A stretch of 64,000 bases of DNA from Terriglobales bacterium (GCA_049513095.1 JBEKWL010000001.1:3008-67007); one strand, 5' to 3'. Positions 7,774 to 28,583 are shown, counted from the first letter of the stretch. The notes: generated by a model from the sequence alone, not told the origin. A program made the numbers and translations.

Positions 7774-8559
7774 TTAGAACGTGCATGTCTGAGTAGAGAT
7801 TTCCACACGAGAAAAAGCGCCCTCGACGGCCGCCGTCGCGCGGTAGCTATCGCCGACGCTCAGGTCTGCGAGAAACCACTGTTTGCGAGCCTCGGTGTTT
7901 CCTCGGATCTCTTCAAGCTCAGGATCGAGATCGGGGTGTGTGGTGACGGAAAAATCCGCCAGTGGAAAAGAGAGACCGTCACCAGTGGCCTTCAGGAAGG
8001 ACTCCTTGCGCGTCCAGCAGGCAAAGAAGCCCGGCACTCGGAGGTGATCCGGCAATGCCCGCAGGCCGGCGCGTTCGCGAAGGGAGAAGAATCGCTCGGA
8101 AAGTGCACCAGTGTCGACGTCGCTGCGGATTCTTTCGATATCGACGCCTAACCGGTGCTCACTGCCAACCGCAATCAGCGCGATGCCCGCCGAGTGGGAT
8201 AGGTTGAACTGCAGCGCGCGTGGATTCTGCTCGGGTGCGAGCTGGGGTTTGCCGCTGCTCAGATACTCGAAGCGAATTTCGTTCGCAGGAATTGCAAGGT
8301 AGCCAGCAAGCAGACCCCGAAGTGCCGACCGACATCGGGTGAAGTGAATCCGGTCTCTCTCGAAATGAAACCGGCCGGCGCGGACGAGTTCATCCGCAGA
8401 CAGGACGCTGGCCTCGGAGCTTGCTTTTGCCGGTTCGTCAAGACGCACCCTCCAGAGGTCAACTCGTCCCGACGGAAACACCGGCTGCGAGGGAGTTTGC
8501 GACCACAAACCATCGTGGCCTTGTTTCCTGCCGCCGGCGAGCGCGTTGACATCCTTCAT
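7774..8559 (-). CDS. 4'-phosphopantetheinyl transferase, Sfp-type
   Basis: Motifs: LSADELVRAGRFHFERDR, GKPQL, FNLSHSAGIALIAV, GVDIERIR and W(T)RKESFLKATGDGL. It lies immediately downstream of the NRPS-PKS on the same strand. Confidence 0.85.
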   Translation of the reverse strand: MKDVNALAGGRKQGHDGLWSQTPSQPVFPSGRVDLWRVRLDEPAKASSEASVLSADELVRAGRFHFERDRIHFTRCRSALRGLLAGYLAIPANEIRFEYLSSGKPQLAPEQNPRALQFNLSHSAGIALIAVGSEHRLGVDIERIRSDVDTGALSERFFSLRERAGLRALPDHLRVPGFFACWTRKESFLKATGDGLSFPLADFSVTTHPDLDPELEEIRGNTEARKQWFLADLSVGDSYRATAAVEGAFSRVEISTQTCTF

Positions 8560-8635
8560 CTTGGCCGGTCCTGGTCATTTCTCGGGCCATGATTGTAGTC
8601 CATAACAGTAGCGTCTTCTATAGCGTCCCTGCGAT

Positions 8636-11600
8636 CTAAATCCCCAGGTCTGGTCCAGAGGTTGCGCTTTCCACGCCAGTTTCTCCGGATTCTACCAGCC
8701 CATTGCCTATCCAGGCGACATGAGTGCCAACAAGTTCCAAACGTTCGTGCACGACAATTTTTGAATTCTCTATCGCCCGGTCAAGGCAACCGCGCAAGAG
8801 GGCAGCAAGTTGCCCAACATAGGGCTCGACGAGGCTGCCGCGGGGACTGATTGGAAGCGAGAAGAGCCGAACGCCACCTTGCGCAACCTCTCCCCAGCCA
8901 CCCAAATGAGCGTTATAACCCGCCAGATGACGCTCCGCCAGAAAGAGAGTCAATTCCCCGGGATAAGGCCTGACGTCGTATTGAGCAAGCGCCTCTTCGT
9001 AGATATCCGCAAGTTTGACTTGAGGCGTGGCCGCATTGGCATTAAGCAGAAGACGATTCCGAAGACGGGCCCAACCAAGACGAGCGGATGCTTTGATTCG
9101 GGTAATCTCGACGCGCACTTTTTCCATGAAAAAGGCGAGTTTGCCTGCACCCTCCGCTGCCATGAGATTCTGGAGGTGAAAATAGGGGTTGAGGATAAAA
9201 CGATTGATAAACCTCTGGTGCAACGGGAGCGGCCAGCGCAGGGCGCGGAAATTGTAAATCTCAATGAGGGCTACGAGGCCCACGGTCTCGCCCGATTCGA
9301 TGAGTTGCCGTGCCATTTCCAGGGCCAGCGTGCCACCCAGGCAGTACCCGCCAAGCATGTAGGGACCGTGCGGTTGTACTTGGCGGATTTCGTGGATGTA
9401 CTGGCGTGCCACATGTTCGAACCGGCCATCGACCGGAGAACGCCCATCGAGATCGGCGGATTGCAAACCGAAGACGGGCTGATCAGCGCCGAGATGGGCC
9501 GCTAGGGAACGATAGAGCAAGACGTTGCCTTCCGCGGCGTGCGCGAGAAAAAGCGGAGGCCGGTTGCCGGATCGATTGATCGCCACGAGCGATTGCCAAT
9601 CTTCTGCTCTGCTGCCCCGGCTCAGAACACTCGCCAGCATCCGCGGGGTAGAGGCGTCGTAGAGGGCCGAGAGCGGCGCGGTGCACCCCAACACGAGTTG
9701 GATCAGGTCAAACAACTGCGCCGCAGCGATGGAGTGGCCACCCAAGGCAAAGAAATCATCATCCGGCCCAATTTCGCGGACATCCAATACCCGCTGCCAA
9801 AGAGGCAGCAGCGCGCGGAGCAATGCGGGCTCCGCCATCGTGTTAAATCTCGTGGAGCTTGCCGGTGAATCTGAGAATTGTCGTGGCAGCTCTGGAGCCG
9901 AAGTCGAAACGGCCGAAAGGAATTCGTGAGCAGCTTCCCGGTTTGAGGCATGAGTGTAAACAATTTCAGTTGCAGGAGAAGCATCGGCACGCTTGAGCCG
10001 GGCAAGATCCAGAACTTGCCGCGACGGATCTGCCGCAAGGTCCTGAAAGATGGAACCAAGCGTTGTGAGCCATTCTCGTATGGTGAGGTCCTCAAAAAGC
10101 TTGATGTCGTAGTGGCAGCGAACCTCCAGGTTCTCTTCCATCTCTACCGCATTCAAATACAACTCGAACGATTCGTAACCTTTGGGGTTGGCATCGTAGT
10201 CGGCGGCAAATCCGGATTGCGGCAATTCGTTTGGCTTGAACTTCTTGACGTTGGTGAGGCCAGTCGAGATCGGGGAAATGCCGAGCGCAGGCCCGACTGG
10301 ACGCAGGTCCTCCAGTAAACTGACCATCGTGAAGTTGGCATGGTCTAGCGCAGCAAGAAGCTCGCCCTGTACTCTCTCGAGAAAAGCGCTGACGGCTTCG
10401 CCTTCGCGTAACTCCACAACGAAGGGGAGAAGATTTACACAGTGTCCGACCAGACCGGGCTGGCCGATGACCGGTTGTTCCGCAGTGGGCAGAGCAATAA
10501 CAAAACGACGTTGCTGTGAAATGCGGGCGAGAAGGATGGCCAAAGAACTGAGAAGGACAGCGAAGAAGCTGCAGCCCTCGTTTGCTCCTACCTCTCTAAG
10601 GTTTTCGACCACCGGGGCCGGAATGGGGTGATCGAGACGGCGCGCGCTGAATTCACGCCGCGCGCTCCGCGGGTGATCGGTCGGAAGCACGAGCACGGGA
10701 AAACCATCTTTGAATTTCGCATGCCAATAGCTGCCCGCTTCCTTGAATTCTTCAGAGCGGTAGCGCTCGGTTACGCTCTGTACGTAATCGACGTAACTCT
10801 TCGCGGGCTCCAGGGATGCGGGTGCGCCCGAGATTTCTTCTGAATAGAAGGCGCAAAGATCGTGGATCAGTACATCCAATGACCAACCATCGCAGATGAT
10901 GTGGTGCGCCGTGAAGATAACCGCCGCGTGATCGGGGCCGAGCAAAACCATTTGGCAACGGAACAACGGACCCGCAGGCAGGGGGAACGGTAAGGCGGTC
11001 TCGTCGGCAATCAGTTTGCGGAGACGCTCCTCTTGCCGGGTTAGATCGTTGATAGAAGAGAGATCGGTTACCGGCATCGCGATTTTCTGCGCCGCGGCGA
11101 TCTTCATCACCAGACCGGCCTCATCGAAGCTGGCGCGAAGGGCATCATGCCGCCCCACCAATCGTTCCATGGAGCGCGCCATTTTCTCGATCGCGATGTT
11201 GCCGGTAAATCGCACCGTCATGGATTCGTTATACGAGGCCGACAAACGTTCGGAAAGACGCGAGGAGGCATAGATGCCCCGCTGCGGAACAGTAGATTCA
11301 ACCTCCAGGAGGCCGGAAGCCGCCGGAGCGGGTGCCTGCGAGTTGTCTTTCGGCAGTGTGGTAACCAAGGGTGTTCCGGCAGCGGCAGGGGCGGCCGAAG
11401 TTGGATCATTCATGCCGGCCTTTTCGAGAAGGGTAACCAAGCGGGCGATGGTGCGTGCTTGATCGGCAACGACTTCCTCGAGCGTGCTGCTGTTCTTCCG
11501 TACGTTCGGTCGGGATTCTACGGCAGCAGGCGCAGCGGGCGGGGCAGGAACAGGCGGAGAGGCCGGGGTGGCAGCCGTTTCCGCAAGAATGTCGGCAGGC

Positions 11601-14600
11601 AGGGTGGCGTCGAGATGCGCCGCAAGCAGGTCAACGTTGGGCCACTGATTCATGAGCTGACTGAAGCTGACCTTGGCGGAAAACTCCTTGCGGATGGCAA
11701 AAGCGACCTGCGTCAAGGATAAGGAATCGAATCCCTGCTCCATGAACGTGGCGGAGGTGCTGATCTGTGAGCGTTCGTGTCCGGAGACTGGTACGAGGAG
11801 GTCAACCAGACGCGCAGCGATGCGGTCTCCTCGTGAAGATGGGCGTGAAGCTAATGAACTTCCCGAGGTAACGCTCGCTAGCGTCGCGGAGGAAGCCAAT
11901 GGCTCAACGAATTGCCCGACGGGGGGACGAATGGCTGAATCGGAACTCGCGGCCTGGAGGTTTGGTGCAGCGGTTGCCACTGGGGCAGGGTCTACCCAGA
12001 AGCGCTGCCGCTCAAAGGGATAAGTTGGCAAAGGTATGCGCCGGCGGTCTTCGTTGGCATAGAAGGCATCCCAATCAATGGACACGCCGTTCTGCCAGAG
12101 AGACCCCAGGGCGAAAAGCACGGTCGCCCACTCGGTGTTGTTCTCAGGCGTATCGGCAAACGTGGGAATGGCCGTGCAGGGATGGTCGGGCGTGAACTGC
12201 TGGCGGGCCAACGAACACAGTGTGGAACGCGGTCCACATTCCAGGAAGAGGTCGTATCCCTGGTCTTTGAGACACTGGATTGCTTTCGAAAACTCCACCG
12301 TTGACCGGGCATGATTGGCCCAATAAGCGGGATCGGTGGTTTCCGCGGCGGTGATGAGGCGTCCCGTGACCGTCGAGACAAAGGGCCTCACCGGCGCGCG
12401 CAACTGGATTTTGGCGACGGCCGCGCGCAACGGTTCAACCATGGGATCCATCATCGCGGAGTGGAAGGCATGCGAGGTATGCAGGTGGCGGCAGACGATG
12501 CTTTCCGCTTCGAGTTGCTTCTGGAATTGGCCGACATCCGCTTCCGGCCCCGACACGACACATAGAGCCGGAGCATTATTGGAAGCGATCTGAAGCGTAG
12601 CCGGAAGAATTTTCGCGATCGAATCTGCGCTGCCGCTCACCGCCATCATGGAACCACGCGGGAGGTTCTGCATCAAGCGGCCCCGCAGAGCGATGATGCC
12701 GAGAGCGTCCTCAAGTTCCCACACGCCAGCGAGCGTGGCGGCGACAAATTCTCCGATGCTGTGTCCGGCCATCATGGCAGGCTCGATGCCCAGGCTCTGC
12801 CAGAAACGCGCCAGCGCGTATTCGATGACGAAAATGGATGGCTGGGTGAAAAACGTGTCCTGCAGGGAGATCTGGGCCGTCTTCTCATCTCCACTTTGAG
12901 GATAAAGAAGTTCACGTAAATCTCTGCCGAGATGAGGCTTGAGATGTTCGCAACAATCGTCCACGACGGCGCGGAAAAGAGGCTCGTCTCGATAGAGGTT
13001 CAGGCCCATGTTGACATACTGGGTGCCCTGCCCGCCGAAAAGGAAGACGACGGGAGGATCCCGGCGTTGACAGCGTTTACTGCTGCCGCGCAAAGGATTG
13101 GGTTGCAGGAGAATTCTGGCGGCTTCGCTGGAATCGGCGGCGACCACGAAACGCCGGTGGGTCATCTGCTTGCGCCCGGTTTGAAACGTGTAGGCCGCAT
13201 CCGCGAAAGATTCCGGTGCGGCGTTCGCGAGATGCTCCGCCAACGCCTGGCTGTACGCCGCGAGCGCCGCCGGACTCTTGGCCGAGAAAGGCAAAAGCTG
13301 CAGCGGACGCGAAGCGCGCGCGTCCTTCGGCACGGGTGCTTCTTCCAAAATGACGTGGACGTTGGTCCCGCCAAAGCCAAACGAACTGACCGCTGTGCGG
13401 CGCGCTTCCTCTCCTCGAGGGAAGGGGATGAGCTTATCGGCCATGATGAAAGGGCTGCTGGCAAAATCGATCTTGGGATTGGGCGTCTTGAAATGGAGGG
13501 TCGGAGGAATTTGTTCGTGATGGAGAACGAGCGCCGCTTTGATCAGCCCCGCAACTCCCGCGGCATTGGTCGGATGCCCAATGTTTCCTTTGATGGAGCC
13601 GATATAGCAGAACTGTTTCTTGCCGGTCTTGCTTTCAAAAACTTTCCGCAGCGCTTCGAATTCAATGGGGTCGCCGACCGGAGTGCCCGTGCCGTGCGCC
13701 TCGATGTAGCGAATGGTCTCGACGGGAACGTTGGCATTAGACTGGGCCAGGGCAATGGCATCCGCCTGGCCGTCCACGCTCGGGGCCAGGAAAGAGGCAG
13801 GGCGTGCGCCGTTGTTGTTTTTGCCGGTGCCGCGAATAACGGCATAAATGGTATCGCCATCGGTCAGAGCATCGGCGAGCCGTTTGAGCATGACTACGCC
13901 GGCGCCGTCACAAAACATGGTTCCGGTGGCGTCCGCATCAAAAGGACGGCAGTGACCATCCTTGGCAAACGTGCCTCCCTCTTGATAGAGGAACCCGCTC
14001 TTTTGCGGGACCGTGATGTCAACGCCGCCGGAGAGAGCGATGTCGCACTCATAGTCGAGCAGCGAGCGATAGGCCTGGTCCACCGTTAAGAGCGTGGTCG
14101 AGCAGGCGGTATTGACGCTGATCGCGGGCCCGCGGAGATCCAGTAGATAGGCGGTCCGAAGCGCGATGTAGTCCTTCTGGTTGCCATACTCAACGGCGAG
14201 CTTGCCGGCCATGGCCAACAGATCGGGCTGGGTCAGGAGGTTAGTTGTGTAGTAGTGGTTGTCGCCGATGCCCGCAAATACGCCAATGCGCCCTTTGTAG
14301 CGCTCCGGGTCGTATCCTGCGTTCTCGAGCGCCTGCTGGGCGAGTTCGAGAAAGACGCGCTGTTGCGGATCCATCACCCTGGCTTCGAGCGGGTTGATAC
14401 CAAAGAAGGCGGCATCGAAGAGATCCGCGCCCTCGATCAAACCTCGGGCGCGTATGTAGTCCGGATCGTTGCGGAGATGTTCGTCAATGCCGGGGCCCAG
14501 CTCTTCGGGAGCAAAAAAGGAAATTGATTCGACGGAGTTGCAGAGGTTGCGCCACAGTTGATCGAGATTGGCCGCGCCCGGGAAGCGCCCGGTCATGCCG

Positions 14601-16522
14601 ATCACCGCGACGGCATCGCGCGCGCGCTCGTTCCCGTCTTGCGATTTGGGCTGAGAATCGTGCTGCGAATTGCGCTGATGCCGCGCCCGGGTTTCGGCTT
14701 CGGCAAGAAAGTCGGACTTCGTGCCGCTCTCTTCCTCTTTCAGAAATTCCGCGAGCTTTGCGATCGTGGGATATTGAAAGACTTTGACTGGAGGAATCTC
14801 ACGTCCGAAGCGCGTGTGGTACTGGCTCACCATGCGCACCGCTGCCAGTGAATTGCCGCCGAGATCGAAGAAGCTGTCGTCGATGCCAACTTCTTCCAGT
14901 TGCAGCAAGTCGCACCAGAGATTTGCCAATTGCTTTTCTGTCGCTGTCCGCGGGGCGATAAAGTCCTGGGCAAGAAGTGGCCGCTTGCCCTCTGGCCGGG
15001 GCAGAGCCTTGCGATCGAGCTTGGCGTTCGGGGTCAGGGGAAATTTTTCCAACCGCAGGAAGACGGAGGGAATCATGTAGCCCGGCAGCGTGGCTTTGAG
15101 GGCCTGGACTAAAGAGGTAGAACTCAAGTCTTCACGGCCCGTGTAGTAGGCGGCCAGGCGTTTATCGCCGGGACGATCCTCGCGAAGAACGACGACGGCC
15201 TGTCCGATTCCCTCGATTTTCGAAAGCACGCTCTCGATTTCGCCCAGTTCGATGCGAAAACCGTGGAGTTTCACCTGCTGGTCGAGACGCCCCAGAAATT
15301 CAAGAGTGCCATCGCGGCGGTGGCGGACCTCGTCGCCAGTACGGTAGAGACGTGCATCAGGACCCTCGCTGGTGGGATCGGTAACGAACCTCTCAGCAGT
15401 CAGCTCAGGACGCTTGAAATACCCGCGAGCCAAGCCCGTGCCGCCAATCCAGAGCTCGCCGGGCGTGCCCAGAGAAACCGGCTTGTGGTTCTCATCCAGA
15501 ACATGGAATTGCGTATTCGCAATGGGTGGACCGAGCGAGATGTGGTCAGCAGAGGTAAGGCGTTCGGTGGAGGACCAGATCGTGGTTTCGGTCGGCCCAT
15601 ACATGTTCCAAAGTTCGCGGCAACGAGGGAGCAATTGACGAGCGAGGTCAGCCGTCAGAGCCTCGCCTCCGCAAAAGATCCTCAGGTCGCTCTTCCCTTC
15701 CCAGCCGTTTTCGAGCAGCATGCGCCAAGTCGTTGGCGTTGCCTGCATCACCGTGACTGCGTGTTGCCGAAGCAATCGTTGCAGCTCGCGAGCGTCCGAA
15801 GATTGTTCCGCGGTGGCAATAACGATCTGGGCGCCGCACACCAGGGGGAGAAGGAATTCCAGGATCGAGATGTCAAAAGAAGTTGTCGTAACCGCCAGGA
15901 GTGTATCGGACGCAGGCATTCCAGGCGTTTCCGCCATGGACAAGAGAAAATTGACCAGCGCGCGCCGCGGGATCATAACTCCCTTGGGCTTTCCCGTCGA
16001 GCCCGAAGTGTAAATCAGGTAGGCGAGATGTTCAGGGTTGCTGCTAAAGGGGAGGTTCGTCTCTGGGGCCTTGGAAAGCGACTCTTTTTCTCGGTCGAGC
16101 AGAACAACTCGGGCGGTCGTTTCCGGCAGACTTTCCCGCTGGGAAGAATGGGATAGGAGGAGAGAGACTTCGGAGTCCGCCAGCATGAATGCCAGACGGT
16201 CTTTTGGAAACTTCGGATCCAGCGGCAGGTAGGTCCCACCGGATTTGAGAGTGGCGAGGAGGCTCACCACCGAATCAAACGAACGATCAAGACACACACC
16301 AACCAGGCTCTCGGGACCGACACCTTGCTCCCGAAGGAAATGTGCCAGGCGGTTCGAGCGGGAATTCAGCTCCCGGTAGGTAATCTGCTCCGGTCCCAGG
16401 GTCAGGACGGGGGCGTCAGGTGTGCGCTCGACTTGGTCTTCAATGAACTCGTGCGGGCCTCGCCTCAGGGGGTAGTCCCGCCGGGCATCGTAGTGAGGGC
16501 CGATCACACCTGTTCCCATCAT
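8636..16522 (-). CDS. Hybrid NRPS-PKS megasynthase, 2628 aa: A-PCP-KS-AT-ACP-C-PCP-TE-like
   Basis: Domains with approximate nt spans. A domain (14993-16450): LAYLIYTSGSTGKPKGV, NMYGPTETT, YRTGDEV, GRLDQQVKLHGFRIELGEIE, PNAKLDRKAL. PCP1 (14738-14950): FFDLGGNSL. KS (13337-14617): NTACSTTL, EAHGTGTPVGDP, GNIGHPTNAAG. AT (12173-13054): GHSIGE plus HAFHS, a malonyl-type signature. ACP (11603-11827): GFDSLS. Ala/Pro-rich linker. C domain (10028-11290): HHIICDGWS. PCP2 (9623-9829): FFALGGHSI. Alpha/beta-hydrolase TE-like domain (8783-9565): GGYCLGG. No KR, DH or ER domain was seen. Confidence 0.95.
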   Translation of the reverse strand: MMGTGVIGPHYDARRDYPLRRGPHEFIEDQVERTPDAPVLTLGPEQITYRELNSRSNRLAHFLREQGVGPESLVGVCLDRSFDSVVSLLATLKSGGTYLPLDPKFPKDRLAFMLADSEVSLLLSHSSQRESLPETTARVVLLDREKESLSKAPETNLPFSSNPEHLAYLIYTSGSTGKPKGVMIPRRALVNFLLSMAETPGMPASDTLLAVTTTSFDISILEFLLPLVCGAQIVIATAEQSSDARELQRLLRQHAVTVMQATPTTWRMLLENGWEGKSDLRIFCGGEALTADLARQLLPRCRELWNMYGPTETTIWSSTERLTSADHISLGPPIANTQFHVLDENHKPVSLGTPGELWIGGTGLARGYFKRPELTAERFVTDPTSEGPDARLYRTGDEVRHRRDGTLEFLGRLDQQVKLHGFRIELGEIESVLSKIEGIGQAVVVLREDRPGDKRLAAYYTGREDLSSTSLVQALKATLPGYMIPSVFLRLEKFPLTPNAKLDRKALPRPEGKRPLLAQDFIAPRTATEKQLANLWCDLLQLEEVGIDDSFFDLGGNSLAAVRMVSQYHTRFGREIPPVKVFQYPTIAKLAEFLKEEESGTKSDFLAEAETRARHQRNSQHDSQPKSQDGNERARDAVAVIGMTGRFPGAANLDQLWRNLCNSVESISFFAPEELGPGIDEHLRNDPDYIRARGLIEGADLFDAAFFGINPLEARVMDPQQRVFLELAQQALENAGYDPERYKGRIGVFAGIGDNHYYTTNLLTQPDLLAMAGKLAVEYGNQKDYIALRTAYLLDLRGPAISVNTACSTTLLTVDQAYRSLLDYECDIALSGGVDITVPQKSGFLYQEGGTFAKDGHCRPFDADATGTMFCDGAGVVMLKRLADALTDGDTIYAVIRGTGKNNNGARPASFLAPSVDGQADAIALAQSNANVPVETIRYIEAHGTGTPVGDPIEFEALRKVFESKTGKKQFCYIGSIKGNIGHPTNAAGVAGLIKAALVLHHEQIPPTLHFKTPNPKIDFASSPFIMADKLIPFPRGEEARRTAVSSFGFGGTNVHVILEEAPVPKDARASRPLQLLPFSAKSPAALAAYSQALAEHLANAAPESFADAAYTFQTGRKQMTHRRFVVAADSSEAARILLQPNPLRGSSKRCQRRDPPVVFLFGGQGTQYVNMGLNLYRDEPLFRAVVDDCCEHLKPHLGRDLRELLYPQSGDEKTAQISLQDTFFTQPSIFVIEYALARFWQSLGIEPAMMAGHSIGEFVAATLAGVWELEDALGIIALRGRLMQNLPRGSMMAVSGSADSIAKILPATLQIASNNAPALCVVSGPEADVGQFQKQLEAESIVCRHLHTSHAFHSAMMDPMVEPLRAAVAKIQLRAPVRPFVSTVTGRLITAAETTDPAYWANHARSTVEFSKAIQCLKDQGYDLFLECGPRSTLCSLARQQFTPDHPCTAIPTFADTPENNTEWATVLFALGSLWQNGVSIDWDAFYANEDRRRIPLPTYPFERQRFWVDPAPVATAAPNLQAASSDSAIRPPVGQFVEPLASSATLASVTSGSSLASRPSSRGDRIAARLVDLLVPVSGHERSQISTSATFMEQGFDSLSLTQVAFAIRKEFSAKVSFSQLMNQWPNVDLLAAHLDATLPADILAETAATPASPPVPAPPAAPAAVESRPNVRKNSSTLEEVVADQARTIARLVTLLEKAGMNDPTSAAPAAAGTPLVTTLPKDNSQAPAPAASGLLEVESTVPQRGIYASSRLSERLSASYNESMTVRFTGNIAIEKMARSMERLVGRHDALRASFDEAGLVMKIAAAQKIAMPVTDLSSINDLTRQEERLRKLIADETALPFPLPAGPLFRCQMVLLGPDHAAVIFTAHHIICDGWSLDVLIHDLCAFYSEEISGAPASLEPAKSYVDYVQSVTERYRSEEFKEAGSYWHAKFKDGFPVLVLPTDHPRSARREFSARRLDHPIPAPVVENLREVGANEGCSFFAVLLSSLAILLARISQQRRFVIALPTAEQPVIGQPGLVGHCVNLLPFVVELREGEAVSAFLERVQGELLAALDHANFTMVSLLEDLRPVGPALGISPISTGLTNVKKFKPNELPQSGFAADYDANPKGYESFELYLNAVEMEENLEVRCHYDIKLFEDLTIREWLTTLGSIFQDLAADPSRQVLDLARLKRADASPATEIVYTHASNREAAHEFLSAVSTSAPELPRQFSDSPASSTRFNTMAEPALLRALLPLWQRVLDVREIGPDDDFFALGGHSIAAAQLFDLIQLVLGCTAPLSALYDASTPRMLASVLSRGSRAEDWQSLVAINRSGNRPPLFLAHAAEGNVLLYRSLAAHLGADQPVFGLQSADLDGRSPVDGRFEHVARQYIHEIRQVQPHGPYMLGGYCLGGTLALEMARQLIESGETVGLVALIEIYNFRALRWPLPLHQRFINRFILNPYFHLQNLMAAEGAGKLAFFMEKVRVEITRIKASARLGWARLRNRLLLNANAATPQVKLADIYEEALAQYDVRPYPGELTLFLAERHLAGYNAHLGGWGEVAQGGVRLFSLPISPRGSLVEPYVGQLAALLRGCLDRAIENSKIVVHERLELVGTHVAWIGNGLVESGETGVESATSGPDLGI

Positions 16523-20457: not shown

Positions 20458-20554
20458 GTCTTTTCAGTCCCATGACCCGAGCTCACGGCTAATGATGGTT
20501 AAGACTGTTTCTCGTTGCCGACTGCTGCCCGATCACGTCCGCAATTGACGCGCT

Positions 20555-21499
20555 CTATTTCGAAGCCATAAACGATCCGTGTTCGGATAAGACAATCGCC
20601 TGGGTGGGCTTTCGCAAGCGGCTCAAAACCTTCTTCCACACCGCGGCCAGTCCCATTGGGGCGGTCCCCCGGAGCAGTCGAAGCGCTAGTTTCCAGCGCC
20701 TTCCCCGCAAACAATGGCTGACGGCCCACGACAAAGCGACTGCGCCGATGCATGCGTATCGATCCCGGCGGCGCTTGCTCCCTCCAGGATATTGGCCCTG
20801 ATGTTCCGAGCGCGCCAGCACGAGAATTCCGTCCGCTATCGGTTCCAAACTCCGGATGGCGTTTGTTTCGTGGTGGCGATATGCAACTGTGCAGGGTTGT
20901 TGGACGACAACGCATGGCCCGTAAGTCGCGACTTTCAAGATAAGATTGAGGCTGTCGAGGTGGAAAGTTGCTGCCGTGGTGCTGCGAAGACCTCCCACCT
21001 CGTCGAATACCGACTTCCGAAGTACAATCCGGCTACTGGAAAGGCGGAGTGTCACATCCTTCGACAGATAGTCGTGATATTTTAGAACCTTTATTGGGAG
21101 CGATTCCTGCGAGCCGGCGGGGATGGATTGCCCGTCTTGAAAATCGGTCATTCCTCCAATGATCAGCGGCGGTGAATCAAAGGCCCGGATAACTCGATCA
21201 TAGGTCGCTAGGGCGCAGGGCAGGAGAAGATCGTCACTGTCCAGCAGAACCAAGTACTCTCCTCGGGCCAAGGCAGCCGCCTTGTTTCGGGCAACCTCTG
21301 GGCCTTGATTGGCTTGTCGCAATACGTTGATGCGTGTTCCGTAGGATTGCAGCACCTGCAGCGTCTTGTCCGTGGAACCGTCATCAATCACGAACAGCTC
21401 ATAATCTTTGAAGGCTTGCGACAAAACCGAATCGATCGCCTGACCGACATATTTTTCCCGGTTGTAAGCCGGCATCAGAACACTGAATCGGAGCTTCAT
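20555..21499 (-). CDS. Family 2 glycosyltransferase
   Basis: MKLRFSVLMPAYNREKYVGQAIDSVLSQAFKDYELFVIDDGSTDKT and LLDSDD. The ATG at 21499 was chosen because it avoids overlap with the upstream gene; the longest ORF reaches 21583. Confidence 0.85.
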   Translation of the reverse strand: MKLRFSVLMPAYNREKYVGQAIDSVLSQAFKDYELFVIDDGSTDKTLQVLQSYGTRINVLRQANQGPEVARNKAAALARGEYLVLLDSDDLLLPCALATYDRVIRAFDSPPLIIGGMTDFQDGQSIPAGSQESLPIKVLKYHDYLSKDVTLRLSSSRIVLRKSVFDEVGGLRSTTAATFHLDSLNLILKVATYGPCVVVQQPCTVAYRHHETNAIRSLEPIADGILVLARSEHQGQYPGGSKRRRDRYACIGAVALSWAVSHCLRGRRWKLALRLLRGTAPMGLAAVWKKVLSRLRKPTQAIVLSEHGSFMASK

Positions 21500-21540
21500 A
21501 GTCGCAAAATGTCCCAGCGTAACTTCACTAACAATGCGGC

Positions 21541-22515
21541 CTAACGGGTGAAACCAACGCTGCATCCGCCCGCACTGAACCACTTCGCCTGCGTTGAGCG
21601 CAGATCACCGCGGGACCTAGCCGATAGAGCACACCAACCGCCAGCCCTGAACCGAGCACAAGCGCGCTCGGGATCTGTTGTGGCGAGAAAATTTGGCGGG
21701 TAGTCTGGTGGCAAGAAAGTCCGGCAAGGTGGCGCTTCAGGTGGCAGAAGCAGAGGCCGCCACATGGAGCCTGTCACGCGGAAAATCTGGTACCCGTGCC
21801 CAAGAAGTACCTTGTGCGAGCGCGCCGGGTAGGCCTCATGCTCTTCGAAGAGAATGTCGCGAACCAACTTTCGATCTAGCAATTTCTCAGCGCCAATAAA
21901 GACAGCCGCCTCATGACCTTCGACATCCACTTTCATGATTCCGATGCGGTTGACCTCGTCGAGGGCGTCCAACCGGCGAACGCTGACAGGAACGCCGGTT
22001 GCCCCCAGTTCCAGACTAGCGAGACCTTTGTTGCTGGCATAGTCATCTGGAAAGCGAAGAACGCCCTCACCATTCCGGTCTGAAAGCGCAATTGTCTCGA
22101 TCTGAATAGGCGCGACTCGAAGGGAGCTCCAGTTGTGGACATTCCTGCGTAGTACTGGGAGAAGATCCGGATTCGGCTCAAAGCAACACACGCGCCCTTC
22201 CGGTCCGGCTGACCGCGCAAGCACCAGAGTCACGTAGCCGATGTTCGCCCCCACGTCGACCGCGGAGTCCCCGGCATCTGTCAGCCTCATGACGGCTTCC
22301 GTGAGAGGTAAGTCGTAAACGCCGTATTTGGCAATAAAGCGACCGATGAGTTCCGCAGAACAGGCGTTGATGGTGCAGTGCCATGGCAGGGACAAGGGCT
22401 TGATTTCTACGGACCGTCGGAACGAAAGAAGGCGCAAAACTTGACTTGGTCTCCAGAGGTACTCCGGTTTCAACAGGTGCCGATGCATCACTCTAATCAT
22501 CTTTCTAATCATCAT
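21541..22515 (-). CDS. FkbM-family SAM-dependent methyltransferase (stand-alone)
   Basis: AVDVGANIGYVTLVLARSAGPEGRVCCFEPNP and IGIMKVDVEGHEAAVF are FkbM (Methyltransf_21) signatures. The start is uncertain: 22563, 22515 and 22512 are all candidates. Confidence 0.85.
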   Translation of the reverse strand: MMIRKMIRVMHRHLLKPEYLWRPSQVLRLLSFRRSVEIKPLSLPWHCTINACSAELIGRFIAKYGVYDLPLTEAVMRLTDAGDSAVDVGANIGYVTLVLARSAGPEGRVCCFEPNPDLLPVLRRNVHNWSSLRVAPIQIETIALSDRNGEGVLRFPDDYASNKGLASLELGATGVPVSVRRLDALDEVNRIGIMKVDVEGHEAAVFIGAEKLLDRKLVRDILFEEHEAYPARSHKVLLGHGYQIFRVTGSMWRPLLLPPEAPPCRTFLPPDYPPNFLATTDPERACARFRAGGWCALSARSRGDLRSTQAKWFSAGGCSVGFTR

Positions 22516-22546
22516 TGCTCCACGGAAACCGCAGATTCGTTTCTCA

Positions 22547-25500
22547 TCAGACCTTAGCTCCATGTCGTTGCTGAGCGGCTTTCAGACGGCCGTCGAGTGC
22601 GGGAGCAAGGCCTCTCACGTTAGGCTCCAGCATGAGATTCTGCTGATACCCAGGCACTTCACAAAGCTCGAAGTTGCCATGGAGAATGCGACGCCAACCC
22701 AGCCATTCATCGGCCATTAAACCCTCTAACTGTTTGCTGGCGCGAAATACGAGGGTATCGCCGCCGTACGGCCGCGGCACATATGTTGCCATCGCCTTTT
22801 TGTGTTCAATCCCCAGAGCCTCGAAAATGTACAGCCGCGACAGGCGTGACCGATCCGCAGGACGGTTGCCCCTGATGTTATCGATAGCGATCGCCCTCCT
22901 CGCGAGAGATCGATCCCACAATTCGCGGCACCTGCGCAAAAAGTAGGTCTTGCCTCCGTAGGATAGGTTGTCCACTTCCAGACTGATCCGTTTCTTGGTT
23001 CGGTACCACCAGCGCTGGAGTAGAGAGGCAGACGGCCGGAAGCGCCTGGCATCAGGGGGCATGGATTGGATCATGACGACCAGCCCCACCTCTTGCCCCT
23101 CCGCATTTAGCTGTTGTGCAGCTTCCAAGGCAAGCAGCCCACCCAGGCAGAACCCGCCGAGGAAATACGGCCCTTCCGGTTGAAATTGTCTCAGTTCCTT
23201 CACAAACGCTCTGGCCATTTCCTCCACGGATGTATTCTCTACCAGCTCGCCGTTTAAGCCTCTGGCCTGAAAGGCGTAAACCGGCTGATCCTTCTCCATA
23301 TGCTGCACCAACGCGTGGTATTCGAGAACATTGCCGCCATGCGCATGGAAAAGAAAAAGAGGCGGCCTTGTTCCCTGTTGCCGCATGGGAACCAAAAGGG
23401 ACCAGGAGGGAACCCATTGCTTGTCGCCAAGTATTTTTGCCAGGGAAGCAATCGTCGGAGCTTCCATCAAAGTCGCAAGGGGAAGTTCCACTCCAAATGC
23501 CTCCCGAATTTGTGACACCGCGCGGACAGCCATCAATGAGTGAGCACCTAAATCAAAAACATCCTCCTGGACACCAATATGCTCAATCTTCAGCAGGTCC
23601 GTCCAAATCGCCGCCAGTGTCTTCTCGATCTCAGTGCGAGGGCTCACAAAATCTTGGGAGCGCTGTGTGGTCTCGTGGACAAAGGTCGGAAGCGCTTTGC
23701 GGTCAATTTTCCCGTTCGCCGTCAACGGAAATTTTTCCATCAGGACAAACGCCGCCGGAACCATGTACTGCGGCAGCCGTTCTTTCAAATTCCTGCGCAA
23801 TGCCGCAGGCGCCAGGATTTCCTCGCCCGGGGAAGGCAGTGACCGCAGGTGCGCATCGGCTGTTTGCTGCCGCGCGAGGCGGGACCCCGCCGCAGGCCGA
23901 ATGGCGTACACGTATGACGGCTGGGCTTCGCTGAGCGATGAGCTGTGCTCGGCAAGAACCTCATAGCGCTGCCGTTCCAGCAGGGTAGTAATTGACTCCA
24001 GGTTCTCCGGATGATCCACTCGGACGACCAACTGGCGAATTTTGGACCAATCGTCAGGGCTGAGTTCTCGCAGTATATCCAACTCCCTTTCCTCGACATT
24101 AATCCTGAGCAGGTCAATGCGTTCAATCCCTTCGGCTGCGATAACGCTCGACAAAGTTGGCGGTTGAGCGGACTTGGACCCGGCATCTAGCGCGACATCA
24201 TTCGATTCACCGATCTCCTCGGCAAATCGCTCATCGCGTGACTCACTCTGCTCGTTGGACGCATGGTTCCCAGCCGCCTCGCGTTCCGCCGCCACATCAT
24301 CGTACGACCCGGATGAGCCCGACAATGCCTCAAAGAATGACGCCTCCGCTGACTTACTTTCGCGAGCGAGACCATACGGCAGACATTGCACTGCCGTGCC
24401 CCACGCTTCAGCATTCGCGCTCAGACACGCATATGCCGCAGGGTCGGGCTCAAAGCAAAGAATCCTCAGATTCCGCTCTAGGCGGCTGGCGAACACCGTA
24501 AACAAACCAATGTTTGCGCCGACGTCTACAATGCAGTCACCGTCGAGGATTGCGATCCCGTGCCGGAGATAAGCTTGCCGCACGAAGATTTCGTTGTACA
24601 TGGAATCGGTTTCGTTCTTGTTCAGATGTGCCACCGGCGAGCCATCGGGCAACCAAGAAAGCGTCTTGTTCCCCCAAAGCGGCTGACTCGCGCGTTTCGG
24701 AACCACATAAGCGATCAACTGCTTGGTGCCTGACCCATCTTCACTTGCCATCACCAGCGCGTCTCTTACGCCGCGCTGCTCGCGCAAGACTCCAGCGATT
24801 TCACCGAGCTCGATGCGGTAGCCGTGGATTTTGACCTGATCGTCAATGCGACCGCAAAACTCGATGTTTCCGTCCGGCAAGTAGCGCGCCAGGTCGCCGG
24901 TGCGATACATTCGCCCATCAGGATCTGGACTGAAATGATCGGGCACGAATTTCTCAGCCGTCAAATCAGGGCGATTGAGATATCCCCGGGTTACGCCAGA
25001 GCCGGCGATGTGAAGCTCGCCTTCAACGCCGACGGGCACGGGCTGCCCACTCTCATCGAGAATATAAATGCGGCTATTGGGCAGAGGCCTGCCTAAGGGA
25101 AGCGTGCCAGACCGCGTACTCGGCAGTTGCGGTCCGACATGATAGGTCAGCACGCCTACCGTGGTTTCTGTGGGACCATAGTGGTTGTAGATCTCGCAGC
25201 CCGGGGACAATACTCGCAGTCGATCGATCCAATCCAAGCGCGAGGCCTCGCCACCTAGGATCAGGCGGCTTCTGGGCATCACTCGCTCCGGATTTCTTCC
25301 ACTCTGCAATGCCGCCAAATGGGAGGGCACGATCTTGAGAACGTCGATCCTCTCGCGCTCGAAGTAATCCGACAGCATGGCCTGACTCTCAGCCCGCTCA
25401 TGCGAGATAACATGCAGGCAGCCACCCGTAGTCAGCGCGGGAAAAATCACCGTATTGCCGAGGTCGGCGGCAATTGTCGATACCGTCGCGTGCTTCATGC

Positions 25501-26197
25501 CCGGCTGGAGCTGCAGTCGCTCGGAAACGCCCAGTACGTAGTTGACAATGTTTCTGTGCTCGATCCCCACACCCTTGGGACGGCCGGTTGAGCCGCTCGT
25601 ATAAATCACATAAGCGAGGTTTGCGGAGTTGTACGGAGGAGCGTTTTGCGAGACGCTTTGCAGATCATCCCACGCGAGTGAATCCAGGCAGACGGCCTGC
25701 GCAACACCCGGTGTCAGGCTTCCCAAGAGGCTGGTTTGCGTGACAACTAACTGGGCCTTGGCATCACCGAGCATGAATGCGACCCTCTCTTGAGGATAGG
25801 CAGCATCAATCGGCAAGTAAGCGGCTCCGGCCTTCAGGATGCCCAACATTCCGATCACCATTTCCAGCGATCGCTCGACGAAAAGCCCTACAGGAACATC
25901 GGGCCCCGCCCCCAGGCTTCTCAGGTGAAGTGCCAGTTGGCTGGCGCGACGGTTGAGATCGTCGTAGGTCAACCTCTGCTGCTCGAACACCAAGGCCACC
26001 TGATTGGGGGTTCGCCGTACCTGTTCCTCGATCAACTGGTGCAAGGAGAGGTTCTTTTCGGGATATGCCACGGCTGTGTTGTTCCAATCCACGAGCAACT
26101 GCTGACGGTCGGCAGCGGCGACCGCCGGCAACGTGGAAGTGCCCTGGTCCGGACCGAGGGCAATCGCTCGACCGTCGATTAGGTCATCCATTGACAT
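22547..26197 (-). CDS. NRPS, 1216 aa: adenylation domain interrupted by an FkbM-type methyltransferase, then PCP and a TE-like domain
   Basis: A-domain motifs: LAYVIYTSGSTGRPKGV, NHYGPTETT, YRTGDLA, GRIDDQVKIHGYRIELGEI. An FkbM-like insert follows (about nt 23888-24685): IVDVGANIGLFTVFAS...CFEPDP...IDLLRINVEERE. The A9/A10 motifs resume after it (LPQYMVPAAFVLMEKFPLTANGKIDRKAL). PCP: FDLGAHSL. TE-like domain (about 22598-23365): PLFLFHAHGGN and GGFCLGG. Confidence 0.9.
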   Translation of the reverse strand: MSMDDLIDGRAIALGPDQGTSTLPAVAAADRQQLLVDWNNTAVAYPEKNLSLHQLIEEQVRRTPNQVALVFEQQRLTYDDLNRRASQLALHLRSLGAGPDVPVGLFVERSLEMVIGMLGILKAGAAYLPIDAAYPQERVAFMLGDAKAQLVVTQTSLLGSLTPGVAQAVCLDSLAWDDLQSVSQNAPPYNSANLAYVIYTSGSTGRPKGVGIEHRNIVNYVLGVSERLQLQPGMKHATVSTIAADLGNTVIFPALTTGGCLHVISHERAESQAMLSDYFERERIDVLKIVPSHLAALQSGRNPERVMPRSRLILGGEASRLDWIDRLRVLSPGCEIYNHYGPTETTVGVLTYHVGPQLPSTRSGTLPLGRPLPNSRIYILDESGQPVPVGVEGELHIAGSGVTRGYLNRPDLTAEKFVPDHFSPDPDGRMYRTGDLARYLPDGNIEFCGRIDDQVKIHGYRIELGEIAGVLREQRGVRDALVMASEDGSGTKQLIAYVVPKRASQPLWGNKTLSWLPDGSPVAHLNKNETDSMYNEIFVRQAYLRHGIAILDGDCIVDVGANIGLFTVFASRLERNLRILCFEPDPAAYACLSANAEAWGTAVQCLPYGLARESKSAEASFFEALSGSSGSYDDVAAEREAAGNHASNEQSESRDERFAEEIGESNDVALDAGSKSAQPPTLSSVIAAEGIERIDLLRINVEERELDILRELSPDDWSKIRQLVVRVDHPENLESITTLLERQRYEVLAEHSSSLSEAQPSYVYAIRPAAGSRLARQQTADAHLRSLPSPGEEILAPAALRRNLKERLPQYMVPAAFVLMEKFPLTANGKIDRKALPTFVHETTQRSQDFVSPRTEIEKTLAAIWTDLLKIEHIGVQEDVFDLGAHSLMAVRAVSQIREAFGVELPLATLMEAPTIASLAKILGDKQWVPSWSLLVPMRQQGTRPPLFLFHAHGGNVLEYHALVQHMEKDQPVYAFQARGLNGELVENTSVEEMARAFVKELRQFQPEGPYFLGGFCLGGLLALEAAQQLNAEGQEVGLVVMIQSMPPDARRFRPSASLLQRWWYRTKKRISLEVDNLSYGGKTYFLRRCRELWDRSLARRAIAIDNIRGNRPADRSRLSRLYIFEALGIEHKKAMATYVPRPYGGDTLVFRASKQLEGLMADEWLGWRRILHGNFELCEVPGYQQNLMLEPNVRGLAPALDGRLKAAQQRHGAKV

Positions 26198-26257
26198 GTG
26201 TATTCTTCAGCTCCCTTCGATACCGCGTCACCAGGCCCGCTGTGCCCGTGACTCCAT

Positions 26258-27406
26258 TCACAACGACCAGCCAATCAGCTCCTTCATGATTTCGTTCGTG
26301 CCGGCGTAAATGCGCTGCACGCGGCTGTCGGTCCACATGCGCGCAATCGGATACTCGATCATGTAGCCGTAGCCGCCATGCAATTGAAGGCACTCGTCGA
26401 TGACGCGGCACTGGCATTCGGTGAGCCAATACTTGGCCATCGCTGCCGTGACCGCATCCAGCTGGCCGGCGATGAAACGCTCGATGCAATTGTCGAGAAA
26501 AACGCGGCCAACATGGACTTCGGTCTTGCATTGCGCCAACTTGAAGCGCGTGTTCTGAAAATCGATCAGCGACTTGCCGAACGCTTTGCGATCTTTCACA
26601 TACTTGGTGGTAATGGCGACTGCTTGTTCCGCCATGGCGACCGCGCCAACGCCAATCGTGAGGCGCTCGTAGGGCAATTGCTGCACCATCTGGTTGAATC
26701 CCTTGCCCTCGGAACCAAGGAGATTCGAGACCGGAACCCGCACGTCATCAAAGAACATTTCACAGGTGTCCAACCCGTTCATGCCGACTTTATCGAGCGG
26801 GCGGCCTACGCGGTACCCCGGAAGATTCTTCGGTTCGACAACAACGAGCGAGATGCCCTTCAAACCGGCTGCTTTAGGGTCGGTCTTCAGCGCGACGCAT
26901 ACCAGGCTGGCGTGCCAACCGTTGGTAATGAAAGTCTTCGAACCGTTGATGACATAATGATCGCCCTCGCGCCGCGCGGTGGTTTTAACGCCCGCCAGAT
27001 CAGAGCCGGCCGAGGGCTCGGTCATCGCGATTGCGGCCACCAACTCGCCACGCCCCATGCGCGGGAGCCAGTTGCGCTTCTGTTCGTCCGTGCCATACGA
27101 AAGGATGTAATGACCGACAATACTCTGAATGCTGGAACCGAAGTGAACTCCCACCCGCGCGAGTTCCTCGTTTACTACGGATTCATGGGCGAACGTCCCT
27201 CCGCCACCGCCGTATTCTTGAGGAAAGTCGGGGAGCAGGATGCCTGCCTTACCTATTGCAGTCCAAGCTTCGTCGTCAGGGCGGTGCTGCTCGCGCCAGC
27301 GGGCTTGATGCGGCAGGAATTCCTCTTCTATGAATCGGCGAACCGTTTTTCGGAACATCCGCAGTTCGTCATTCAGCCACGGGGATTGGTACACAACGGT
27401 AGACAT
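26258..27406 (-). CDS. Acyl-CoA dehydrogenase family protein
   Basis: 382 aa with AMTEPSAGSD, FITNG and YAGTNEIMKELI, the typical ACAD pattern. Confidence 0.9.
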   Translation of the reverse strand: MSTVVYQSPWLNDELRMFRKTVRRFIEEEFLPHQARWREQHRPDDEAWTAIGKAGILLPDFPQEYGGGGGTFAHESVVNEELARVGVHFGSSIQSIVGHYILSYGTDEQKRNWLPRMGRGELVAAIAMTEPSAGSDLAGVKTTARREGDHYVINGSKTFITNGWHASLVCVALKTDPKAAGLKGISLVVVEPKNLPGYRVGRPLDKVGMNGLDTCEMFFDDVRVPVSNLLGSEGKGFNQMVQQLPYERLTIGVGAVAMAEQAVAITTKYVKDRKAFGKSLIDFQNTRFKLAQCKTEVHVGRVFLDNCIERFIAGQLDAVTAAMAKYWLTECQCRVIDECLQLHGGYGYMIEYPIARMWTDSRVQRIYAGTNEIMKELIGWSL

Positions 27407-28465: not shown

Positions 28466-28583
28466 TCTAGCTTCTCTCCCCAAACTGTGATGAATTCGAG
28501 ACTTCCAGCAATCACTGAACCGAAACTGCTTCTGATGAAATAGGGCGTTTCCGTGCGTTTAGTCGTGCCGGAATCGCTTAGCC

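Follow-up and report, generated by a model that had tools for sequence, protein, structure and literature searches.

Why should a locus for the synthesis of an exopolysaccharide (EPS) carry the machinery of nonribosomal peptide and polyketide assembly? The question is raised by a 64,000-nt stretch of DNA from a Terriglobales bacterium (GCA_049513095.1), hereafter the window, in which a sequence-only reading had noted a block of thiotemplate genes at positions 7774-27406, nested inside a Wzx/Wzy-type EPS operon, and had suggested that their product might be attached to the polysaccharide. Our analysis partly supports this interpretation. The thiotemplate genes and their domain orders were recovered as described, with Pfam E-values from 1e-16 to 1e-109, and the proposed link to glycan biosynthesis is borne out by other genomes, many of which carry the genes in glycan loci, next to the same neighbour families in shuffled order. 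The idea of a single pathway did not survive. Judged by gene content across genomes, the block is two independent, portable units that each home to glycan loci and that were never found together elsewhere, neither in 83 loci of the second unit nor in 32 loci of the first (0/83 and 0/32). Unit 1 comprises an acyl-CoA dehydrogenase (ACAD), a nonribosomal peptide synthetase (NRPS) of the order A-PCP-TE (adenylation domain, peptidyl carrier protein, thioesterase) with an Asp-type specificity code and an embedded FkbM methyltransferase (MT), a stand-alone FkbM gene and a glycosyltransferase (GT) of the GT2 family, joined by WecB, CE4-like and FemAB-like genes. Unit 2 is a hybrid of NRPS and polyketide synthase (PKS) of the order A-PCP-KS-AT-ACP-C-PCP-TE (KS, ketosynthase; AT, acyltransferase; ACP, acyl carrier protein; C, condensation domain), with a Gly-type code and a malonyl-type AT motif, plus an Sfp-type 4'-phosphopantetheinyl transferase (PPTase), a gene that accompanies both units. 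Because the same two units recur in the glycan and exosortase loci of many uncultured bacteria, we consider it most likely that they decorate a surface glycan and do not make an ordinary free secondary metabolite. That thiotemplate units occur in glycan loci is a robust observation and a widespread one; what they make, and the attachment proposed below, we infer.

What would unit 2 make? The hybrid is a protein of 2628 aa (8636-16522; this and all other array genes lie on the minus strand), matched by the Pfam profiles for AMP-binding (7e-89), KS (6e-62), AT (6e-54), Condensation (3e-68) and Thioesterase (3e-21) and containing three PP-binding stretches; Pfam found no ketoreductase, dehydratase or enoylreductase domain in it. 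The Stachelhaus positions of both A domains of the block were read in a register set against LgrA. The resulting code of the hybrid, DILQFGMIWK, is one residue off the published Gly signature DILQLGMIWK. The KS motifs TACST, HGTGT and GNIGH, the AT motifs GHSIG and malonyl-type HAFH, and the ACP motif FDSLS are all present, and the motifs, code residues included, are kept in most of 58 full-length orthologues. On the DNA they map to 14846-14860 (PCP1), 14096-14110 (KS Cys), 12752-12766 (AT GHSIG), 12461-12472 (AT HAFH), 11717-11731 (ACP), 10886-10906 (C, HHIICDG), 9728-9742 (PCP2) and 9332-9352 (TE, GGYCLGG). The second module has no A domain of its own, since the C domain is followed directly by PCP2, and a complete C-A-PCP module is not present. 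The chemistry that had been proposed, an amino acid extended by one malonate with retention of the beta-keto group and then condensed to a second, carrier-bound amine, does follow from this domain order and these motifs; with the exception of the TEs, the catalytic motifs of the thiotemplate proteins are intact. The PPTase (7774-8559) is of the Sfp/HetI type, with matches to ACPS (1e-18) and AASDHPPT_N. The G+C content of the hybrid is 0.588, compared with 0.538 for the CE4-like gene and 0.515 for the VanZ gene on either side, and plus-strand GC skew over the hybrid (8001-16000) runs from +0.02 to +0.10 while nearly all other DNA of the array is negative. Because of this distinct composition, which the small NRPS of unit 1 does not share, a separate evolutionary origin is suggested for the hybrid-PPTase unit.

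Unit 1 is built around a smaller NRPS of 1216 aa (22547-26197), identified by AMP-binding (2e-85) and TIGR01733 (432 bits, cut-off 317). An FkbM-type MT interrupts its A domain between A8 and A10, with motif I at 24506-24529, and its PCP (PP-binding 2e-16) carries LGAHSL at aa 883, the Ser motif lying at 23534-23551. The A-domain code DLTKIGHVGK, which includes Asp235 and Lys517, is invariant in 21 orthologues and differs at one position from DLTKVGHVGK, a signature of Asp- and Asn-activating domains, mostly Asp (PMC12283262). Asp-type code motifs also retrieve ordinary multimodular cyanobacterial NRPS modules, so the motif recurs in standard amino-acid-activating modules. A stand-alone FkbM-family methyltransferase (21541-22563; Pfam), optional in the cassette, shares similarity with the embedded MT in the S-adenosylmethionine-binding region only. 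FkbM-family enzymes of characterised pathways are nearly all O-methyltransferases, with one N-methylating exception (PMC9259500). The GT2 gene that follows (GT2a; 20555-21583) has an orthologue directly after the NRPS/FkbM genes in loci of the same form. On the other side of the NRPS lies the ACAD (26258-27406), assigned by Pfam and by similarity to PDB entries as resembling long-chain acyl-CoA dehydrogenase (LCAD): PDB 2PG0 scores 385 bits and human LCAD 341 bits, against 164 bits for a prolyl-ACP dehydrogenase. A role in pyrrole formation, as for prolyl-PCP dehydrogenases, was considered and rejected, the A-domain code being of the Asp type and the ACAD far closer to the LCAD type.

How general is the association with glycans? 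For unit 2, relatives were sought with the C-terminal half of the 2628-aa protein as query. Orthologues of this half, 44-89% identical, were found in Terriglobales, in metagenome-assembled genomes (MAGs) of 'Ca. Sulfotelmatobacter' and 'Ca. Acidoferrum' and in peat and soil metagenomes, so that the window is probably acidobacterial. The same eight-domain architecture is present in the 83 other loci mentioned above. Neighbours were probed with the window's own proteins only. By this measure at least one glycan-pathway gene is present in 35 of the 45 hybrid loci that have at least 8 kb of non-hybrid flank. The CE4-like gene (28 of the 83 loci) and the PPTase gene (33 of the 83) usually lie directly downstream; a divergent block of Bac_transf, GFO, hexapeptide-DegT and GT2 genes occurs in 8-12 loci, and VanZ, WecB, FemAB-like and Wza genes recur as well. 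Two close relatives (L091 and L094, 87-89% identity) have the same neighbour families in shuffled order. Neighbours outside the set of window-derived probes include RmlABC, a 'choice-of-anchor D' Ig/fn3 protein homologous to the window ORF at 3212-5272, and an exosortase. The exosortase was found in nine of the 83 loci (L085, 15101-15985; L108, 14181-15122; L097, 13068-13991; and L109, L133, L153, L103, L124 and L134), all metagenomic or MAG loci, mostly immediately downstream and co-directional, in the order hybrid-PPTase-exosortase or PPTase-hybrid-exosortase. These exosortases score above the generic signature TIGR04178 and below the cut-offs of all named subtypes (XrtA, XrtC, XrtW), and no PEP-CTERM-tailed open reading frame (ORF) was found near them. 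Several hybrid loci add a stand-alone PCP-TE protein. The architecture varies in one locus (L170), the sole such variant, where the protein ends in C-C-A-PCP-TE and module 2 has its own A domain. In another (L145, 5467-15593) the place of A-PCP-KS-AT-ACP ahead of C-PCP-TE is taken by an ACAD, a stand-alone AMP-binding enzyme, Amidohydro_2 and a 217-aa ORF, in the company of orthologues of GT2a, ACAD, CE4-like, PPTase, VanZ, FemB, PIG-L and GT2b and with a GGDEF diguanylate cyclase after the PPTase.

Orthologues of the 1216-aa protein, 55-93% identical, come from many metagenomes and fall into three forms: the TE is part of the NRPS in the first, is a separate protein in the second, and in the third the A(MT)-PCP starter is extended by C-A-PCP modules. 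The ACAD adjoins the A(MT)-PCP gene in all loci of the three forms that were inspected and is, by this token, an obligate partner. The first form is a cassette of FemAB-like, ACAD, A(MT)-PCP-TE, optional FkbM, GT2a orthologue, optional PPTase, CE4-like and WecB genes, and the same cassette sits inside otherwise different glycan loci (L001, L003, L004, L007 and L090); its CE4-like gene is either stand-alone or fused to a GT4. A glycosyltransferase lies within two genes of unit 1 in 10 of 10 inspected loci of the first and second forms, eight of them distinct, none of which contains the hybrid, and FemAB-like and CE4-like genes are usually near. One locus of the second form (L088) is a NusG-led EPS operon with Wza, GNVR, kinase, Wzy, GT4, PPTase, ACAD, A(MT)-PCP, TE and FemAB-like genes; in two more (L024 and L012) a GT4 gene directly follows the TE gene, and L024 also has a FemAB-like gene. 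PPTase partners unit 1 in L001, L003, L088 and L024. The third form sometimes lies near EPS genes (L010, L013, L017 and L018). A reference-genome scan used patterns approximating the Asp specificity code, and about half of its 80 loci were ordinary cyanobacterial NRPSs; the 588 loci of the scan are thus not a count of the unit 1 cassette. Some 40 of these ordinary loci were reused as a rough negative control for glycan neighbours, and about one in 40 had a glycan-gene match. In another locus of the third form (L089) the starter belongs to an NRPS cluster outside any glycan context.

The TE domains of both units are atypical. They form one clade (34% identity, E=1e-40), and both have a GxCxG motif, in which Cys is kept in 21 of 21 orthologues of the small NRPS and in 9 of 11 of the hybrid. 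Their closest solved relative is AB3403 of A. baumannii (E=1.5e-26 and 5e-47), the sole solved NRPS TE with a Cys nucleophile besides SulM and ObiF (PMC11298585). An alignment of both families with the AB3403 TE was used to read the acid and His positions. In the hybrid family (8636-9556 in the window) the acid position is Glu, and the canonical-site His is missing ('LPISPRGS') in 10 of 11 sequences; the sole outlier with a Ser nucleophile retains Asp and His. In the small-NRPS family the acid position is Gln, and most members have 'PGHQQN' at the His site. The window's own small NRPS (Cys motif at 23138-23158), which does not have the canonical Ser-His-Asp arrangement with GxSxG, reads 'PGYQQN': Tyr1184, encoded by a TAT codon at 22646-22648 on the minus strand, aligns with the catalytic 'GDH' of AB3403, and a 100% identical metagenomic protein (P0001) has the same residue. 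The separate TE proteins of L088, L024, L012 and L089 have GxCAG and, at the His site, 'GPDGCEGD', with no His. Because of the Cys nucleophile and the degenerate triad, these features speak against a standard hydrolytic TE, and acyl transfer would fit them better than simple hydrolysis. The TE of Pks13, which moves acyl chains onto a sugar, trehalose, is a detectable relative of both (~1e-12). Formation of a beta-lactam or beta-lactone, as by SulM and ObiF, was tried as an explanation, given the sulfotransferase gene beside the ACAD, and dismissed: the TEs have no Gln-Cys-Asn motif (FCL/YCL stands in its place), the A codes are not of the Dap type, and the sulfotransferase is missing from every other cassette locus.

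How are the two units placed with respect to the EPS genes of the window? All 40 ORFs from the gene for an UpxY antiterminator (63978) to that for VanZ (6431) are on the minus strand, in an array of ~57 kb; the thiotemplate genes occupy the tail of this array and are not nested in its middle. Not all junctions are short or overlapping, as described earlier: they range from -118 to +447 bp, and the largest gap, of 447 bp (16523-16969), lies directly upstream of the hybrid. It contains a hairpin with a 13-bp stem (16851-16881), and in which no U-run after the hairpin on the operon strand, no promoter and no known RNA motif was found. The array is headed by the UpxY-family NusG-like transcription antiterminator (63376-63978; NF033644 130 bits, cut-off 100; Pfam NusG). 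Then come the genes for export and polymerisation (55187-63241), assigned by Pfam and NCBIfam profiles: a sigma-54 enhancer-binding protein, Wza, a 479-aa ORF without an assigned family, an XrtA-type chain-length determinant, a PEP-CTERM-type ATPase, a tyrosine autokinase and a Bac_transf initiating transferase. Sugar-precursor and repeat-unit genes follow (33920-55072; profile matches), with a GFO/hexapeptide/DegT trio, GT2 genes, ATP-grasp, YdjC, Asn-synthase-like, Wzy-like and branch GT genes and a Wzx flippase. Two FemAB-like (Acetyltransf_6) genes (31525-33814), whose family is by synteny a conserved neighbour of unit 1, were assigned by Pfam, and a 570-aa PIG-L-type de-N-acetylase, a second GT2 (GT2b) and a sulfotransferase (27509-31515), also Pfam assignments, lead up to unit 1. 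With Bac_transf at 4e-66, Polysacc_synt_3 at 5e-66 and Poly_export at 2.5e-26, together with GNVR and a tyrosine kinase, the locus is by its profile matches a Wzx/Wzy-type EPS locus of an XrtA-like kind, the match to Wzy_C being weak (26 bits, cut-off 31.7). Of the XrtA-system families, the chain-length determinant TIGR03007 is above its cut-off (285.8 against 278.85), and the other markers are below theirs: TIGR03015 with 288.6 (324.5), TIGR03018 with 126.5 (230.65), TIGR03019 with 104-119 bits for the FemAB-like genes (260) and TIGR03108 with 96 (817). A tblastn search with 10 exosortase ORFs found no exosortase in the 64-kb window, and a regular expression for PEP-CTERM-like tails matched no ORF in the window or in any of 170 loci; the window being only part of the genome, either could be encoded elsewhere in it. 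The sigma-54 promoter consensus gave 35 matches where 33 were expected, which is no signal; scans for sigma-70 promoters and terminators were at or below shuffle expectation, and Rfam found no regulatory RNA in the window. UpxY antitermination makes co-transcription into the tail genes plausible.

Between GT2a and the hybrid lie three genes. The WecB-family non-hydrolysing UDP-GlcNAc 2-epimerase (18526-19584) is secure (TIGR00236 330.9 bits, cut-off 210; Pfam 1e-109). The 240-aa ORF at 19735-20457, previously labelled DUF218, has no Pfam or NCBIfam match at E<=1 and no family can be assigned to it; one homologue adjoins the hybrid in L165. The assignment of the 455-aa gene at 16970-18337 as a CE4-like putative polysaccharide de-N-acetylase stands on a profile of five homologues, which matches PDB 3RXZ at E=7e-6 and in which D182, H236 and H240 are invariant and correspond to the CE4 Asp-His-His motifs; Pfam lends it only E=0.11. 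A single-sequence AlphaFold model of this protein (pLDDT 35) was discarded. Its gene is a conserved neighbour of both units, and with the PIG-L gene of the window it belongs to the putative deacetylase genes that could expose sugar amines. The array ends with a LamG-VanZ membrane protein (6431-7588), also encoded in seven hybrid loci.

Based on these observations, we propose a model, to which we would give about an even chance, in which de-N-acetylated amino sugars of the glycan are the acceptors for aminoacyl and ketide-peptidyl units carried on the PCPs. Unit 1 would load Asp, or Asn, on its PCP, methylate it, probably at oxygen, and desaturate or oxidise it. Unit 2 would make 4-amino-3-oxobutanoyl-S-ACP from Gly and malonate, and this ketide would be condensed to an aminoacyl group on PCP2, loaded either in trans or by the same Gly-type A domain. 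In both units the chain would then pass to the TE cysteine and on to a nucleophile other than water, for which an amino sugar with a free amine is the likeliest candidate. WecB and the cassette's GT2 could install this sugar on the lipid-linked repeat unit, with the CE4-like or PIG-L enzymes removing its N-acetyl group, and FemAB-like enzymes may add further residues. Antitermination of the UpxY type would carry transcription over the gaps into the tail genes. That the glycan-embedded versions of both units come with no exporter gene, and that GT and CE4-like genes adjoin them so tightly, favours tailoring without proving it.

Several observations weigh against this proposal. The nearest relatives of the ACAD are genuine fatty-acyl-CoA dehydrogenases, and we have no explanation for a role on an Asp-derived thioester. 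The methylation site, the desaturation and the loading of PCP2 are predictions. No acceptor-specific transferase was found, the scan of the 40 ORFs giving no MBOAT- or LpxL-like match, and the TE of the window's small NRPS, with Tyr1184 replacing the His of its orthologues, may be impaired. Ten of the 45 well-flanked hybrid loci have no glycan gene by the window-derived probes. The neighbourhood of L089 is clearly not a glycan locus, and there the ACAD-A(MT)-PCP starter leads into an ordinary NRPS accompanied by a MacB-type ABC exporter. The gap in front of the hybrid means that the hybrid may be a separate transcription unit. Finally, the operon of AB3403 includes a resistance-nodulation-division (RND) exporter (PMC3758355), suggesting a released product.

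If the products are not attached to a glycan, what else might they be? In the main rival explanation the units make small molecules, free or membrane-associated, and their genes share location and regulation with the EPS genes because both serve biofilm formation. The hybrid might then yield a short Gly-ketide-aminoacyl compound or a tetramate-like lactam, and unit 1 a modified Asp. AB3403, the nearest solved relative of the TEs, comes from a biofilm-induced operon, and a mutant without the ACP of this operon forms less biofilm (PMC3758355). SulM and ObiF, which are the remaining Cys TEs of solved structure, release their products in cyclised, free form (PMC11298585), and a passage in PMC7293339, citing Craig et al. 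2011, places small-molecule N-acyl amino acid synthase genes beside PEP-CTERM/exosortase and EPS genes; the starter of L089, with its exporter, points the same way. We nevertheless regard such molecules as rather doubtful, for the EPS-embedded versions have no exporter gene, the TEs do not have the SulM-type Gln-Cys-Asn motif, and a GT tightly adjoins unit 1 in all inspected loci of the first and second forms, as the CE4-like gene adjoins the hybrid in its 28. An insertion by chance, in which a secondary-metabolite cluster was placed horizontally at the end of the EPS operon with no functional connection to it, would account for the G+C content of the hybrid, for a GC skew opposite to that of the rest of the array, for the 447-bp gap and for the fact that the units are never together elsewhere. 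This explanation is disfavoured by the comparative data and has a very slim chance, because each unit independently recurs beside the same glycan families, in dozens of loci, in different orders and in several phyla, while the control NRPS loci have no such neighbours.

An improbable alternative is prompted by the exosortase genes: the product of the hybrid might serve exosortase sorting, either as a Gly-initiated acceptor or handle with a free amine or by forming part of the lipid or peptide anchor of surface proteins. Since no C domain precedes the loading module, the Gly amine would remain free; an exosortase lies immediately downstream and co-directional in most of the nine loci listed above, and genes of the FemAB-like, 'choice-of-anchor D' and XrtA-type EPS families recur in the neighbourhood. 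Yet the link is limited to nine of 83 loci, the window has neither an exosortase nor a PEP-CTERM-like tail, the latter being missing from the 170 loci as well, no acceptor is known for any exosortase, and the likeness to the glycine bridge of sortase and Fem systems is an analogy. A more specific version, which we hold to be more speculative still, is that the hybrid and the PPTase build a short Gly-initiated ketide-peptide which the TE cysteine would hand to a glycan or lipid carrier, where the glycine amine could be the acceptor of the exosortase, a Gram-negative counterpart of the Fem bridge.

How does the glycan-tailoring model relate to known systems? By working principle the closest are Dlt, AlmEFG and the Nod-factor pathway; by sequence the closest is AB3403. 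To our knowledge, only simple kinds of carrier-protein decoration have been described for surface glycoconjugates, namely Dlt, AlmEFG and ACP-dependent N-acylation. The Dlt proteins (DltA, DltC, DltB and DltD) carry out carrier-protein D-alanylation of teichoic acids, and AlmEFG glycylates Vibrio lipid A. As in these, an amino acid (Gly in the case of AlmEFG) is adenylated and loaded on a phosphopantetheinyl carrier, the predicted destination is a surface glycoconjugate, and both A domains score on the DltA models, below the cut-off. Unlike them, the units are multidomain NRPS and NRPS-PKS proteins with an MT insertion, an ACAD, one ketide extension, a C domain and Cys TEs, and no DltB (MBOAT) or AlmG-type transferase is encoded among the 40 ORFs. 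In the Nod pathway, NodC is a GT2, NodB a CE4 deacetylase, NodA transfers an N-acyl group from the acyl-ACP of NodF/NodE, NodH is a sulfotransferase and NoeI an FkbM-type MT; here too a GT2, a putative CE4-type de-N-acetylase, a KS-made carrier-bound acyl donor, a sulfotransferase and an FkbM MT co-occur. However, no NodA homologue was identified, the donor would be aminoacyl or ketide-peptidyl and not a fatty acid, and the acceptor would be a Wzx/Wzy repeat and not a chito-oligosaccharide.

With AB3403 (PDB 4ZXH/4ZXI; operon A1S_0112-0119) the units share the kinship of the TEs, the rare Cys nucleophile and an ACAD in the same operon, that of AB3403 being linked to biofilm. The AB3403 operon also ends in a PPTase gene, A1S_0119. 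AB3403 itself differs in being C-A-PCP-TE with its own A domain and in its canonical TE Asp and His, and no glycan genes are described nearby. It was crystallised with Gly (PMC10510592), and its operon encodes an acyl-CoA synthetase, an ACAD, an ACP, the NRPS and the RND exporter (PMC3758355). The window has the ACAD, Cys TE and PPTase of such an operon, and no stand-alone ligase, stand-alone ACP or RND pump; the arrangement of L145, with a front end of ACAD and stand-alone adenylating enzyme, resembles the AB3403 operon. SulM and ObiF likewise have the rare Cys nucleophile, but the TEs here have no Gln-Cys-Asn motif and have Glu or Gln at the acid position, and the A domains are not specific for Dap or a beta-hydroxy amino acid. 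The Pks13 TE is a precedent for sugar acylation that uses Ser, against Cys here. As for XrtA/PEP-CTERM EPS systems, the backbone families are alike (TIGR03007), and adenylate-forming and acyl-carrier chemistry near exosortase and EPS genes has precedents in the family TIGR03098 and in the N-acyl amino acid synthases of the passage in PMC7293339. The A domains are not members of TIGR03098, the 'exosortase A system-associated acyl-CoA ligase' family (222-226 bits against a cut-off of 592), neither an exosortase nor a PEP-CTERM protein is encoded in the window, and modular NRPS-PKS proteins are no part of the described system; the text of Haft 2006 does not mention carrier-protein genes in PEP-CTERM loci. 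In the literature on EPS, capsule and exosortase loci we met no description of modular NRPS or NRPS-PKS proteins as conserved components, which, our coverage being incomplete, is absence of evidence only.

What would glycan tailoring by these units imply? If true, it would be routine for abundant but uncultured bacteria of soil and peat (Acidobacteriota and, besides these, Burkholderiales, Gemmatimonadota and Syntrophales) to fit their polysaccharide pathways with modular NRPS and NRPS-PKS units, exopolysaccharides would gain amino-acid and ketide chemistry, and the logic of Dlt, AlmEFG and the Nod factors would be extended. Many of the 'NRPS/PKS clusters' mined from these phyla would then be glycan-tailoring modules and not sources of drug-like metabolites. 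It would also define a TE clade, with a Cys nucleophile and a degenerate triad, that is probably an acyl-transfer station. The exosortase system is poorly understood, and in the hybrid-PPTase-exosortase operons there is a concrete candidate for a chemistry that may be coupled to it.

Some further features of the locus deserve mention. The sulfotransferase (27509-28483, minus strand) directly upstream of the ACAD is found in none of the other cassette or hybrid loci examined, and is probably an EPS-sulfating extra of this locus, outside the thiotemplate unit. The GFO/IDH/MocA oxidoreductase, hexapeptide acetyltransferase and DegT genes (52303-55072, minus strand) form one sugar set with WecB, which we take to resemble the WbpB/WbpD/WbpE/WbpI route to 2,3-diacetamido-2,3-dideoxy-uronic acids; the trio is the one that also divergently adjoins the hybrid in 8-12 other loci, and by analogy a 3-amino sugar made by such a set would give a second possible acylation site. 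Inside the array, on the operon strand, lies a gene for tRNA-Thr(CGU) (42360-42434, minus strand; Rfam RF00005 50.7 bits, ARAGORN), which overlaps the 3' end of an ORF weakly similar to GNAT, FemAB and LPG synthase (42352-43413), upstream of the Asn-synthase-like gene. It departs from the Rfam consensus in the D-loop, where G19 is replaced by U, and in the T stem, where one base is bulged out. Special tRNA-Gly species serve the Fem enzymes of Staphylococcus, and by analogy, given three FemAB-like genes at the locus, this tRNA could be a candidate dedicated donor for glycan aminoacylation.

Beyond the end of the array, and convergent with it, lie genes for two large Ig-like surface proteins, at 3212-5272 and 23-3058, both on the plus strand. 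The former encodes a 'choice-of-anchor D' Ig/fn3 protein (NF012200 263 bits), fn3-like at its C-terminus, homologues of which recur beside the hybrid in 11 loci; the latter is truncated by the window start. Neither has a recognisable C-terminal sorting signal, and the 3212-5272 protein has no PEP-CTERM tail. In several loci of Gemmatimonadota or Armatimonadota type, genes for tRNA-His(GUG) and tRNA-Trp(CCA) directly flank ACAD-A(MT)-PCP-C-A-PCP-TE units (L014, 9806-9958; L016, 16926-17000 and 22395-22469; L018, 13463-13537; L089, 8513-8587 and 16948-17023), flanks that may mark an integration site or lineage-specific synteny. In two Syntrophales loci (L042, on the Smithellaceae chromosome OY820932.1, and L039), DegT, WecB, GFO-hexapeptide and hexapeptide-transferase genes come directly after those for a PPTase and a C-A-PCP-TE protein with an Asp-type code, which is, going by the gene order, another pairing of thiotemplate and amino-sugar genes in a different phylum.

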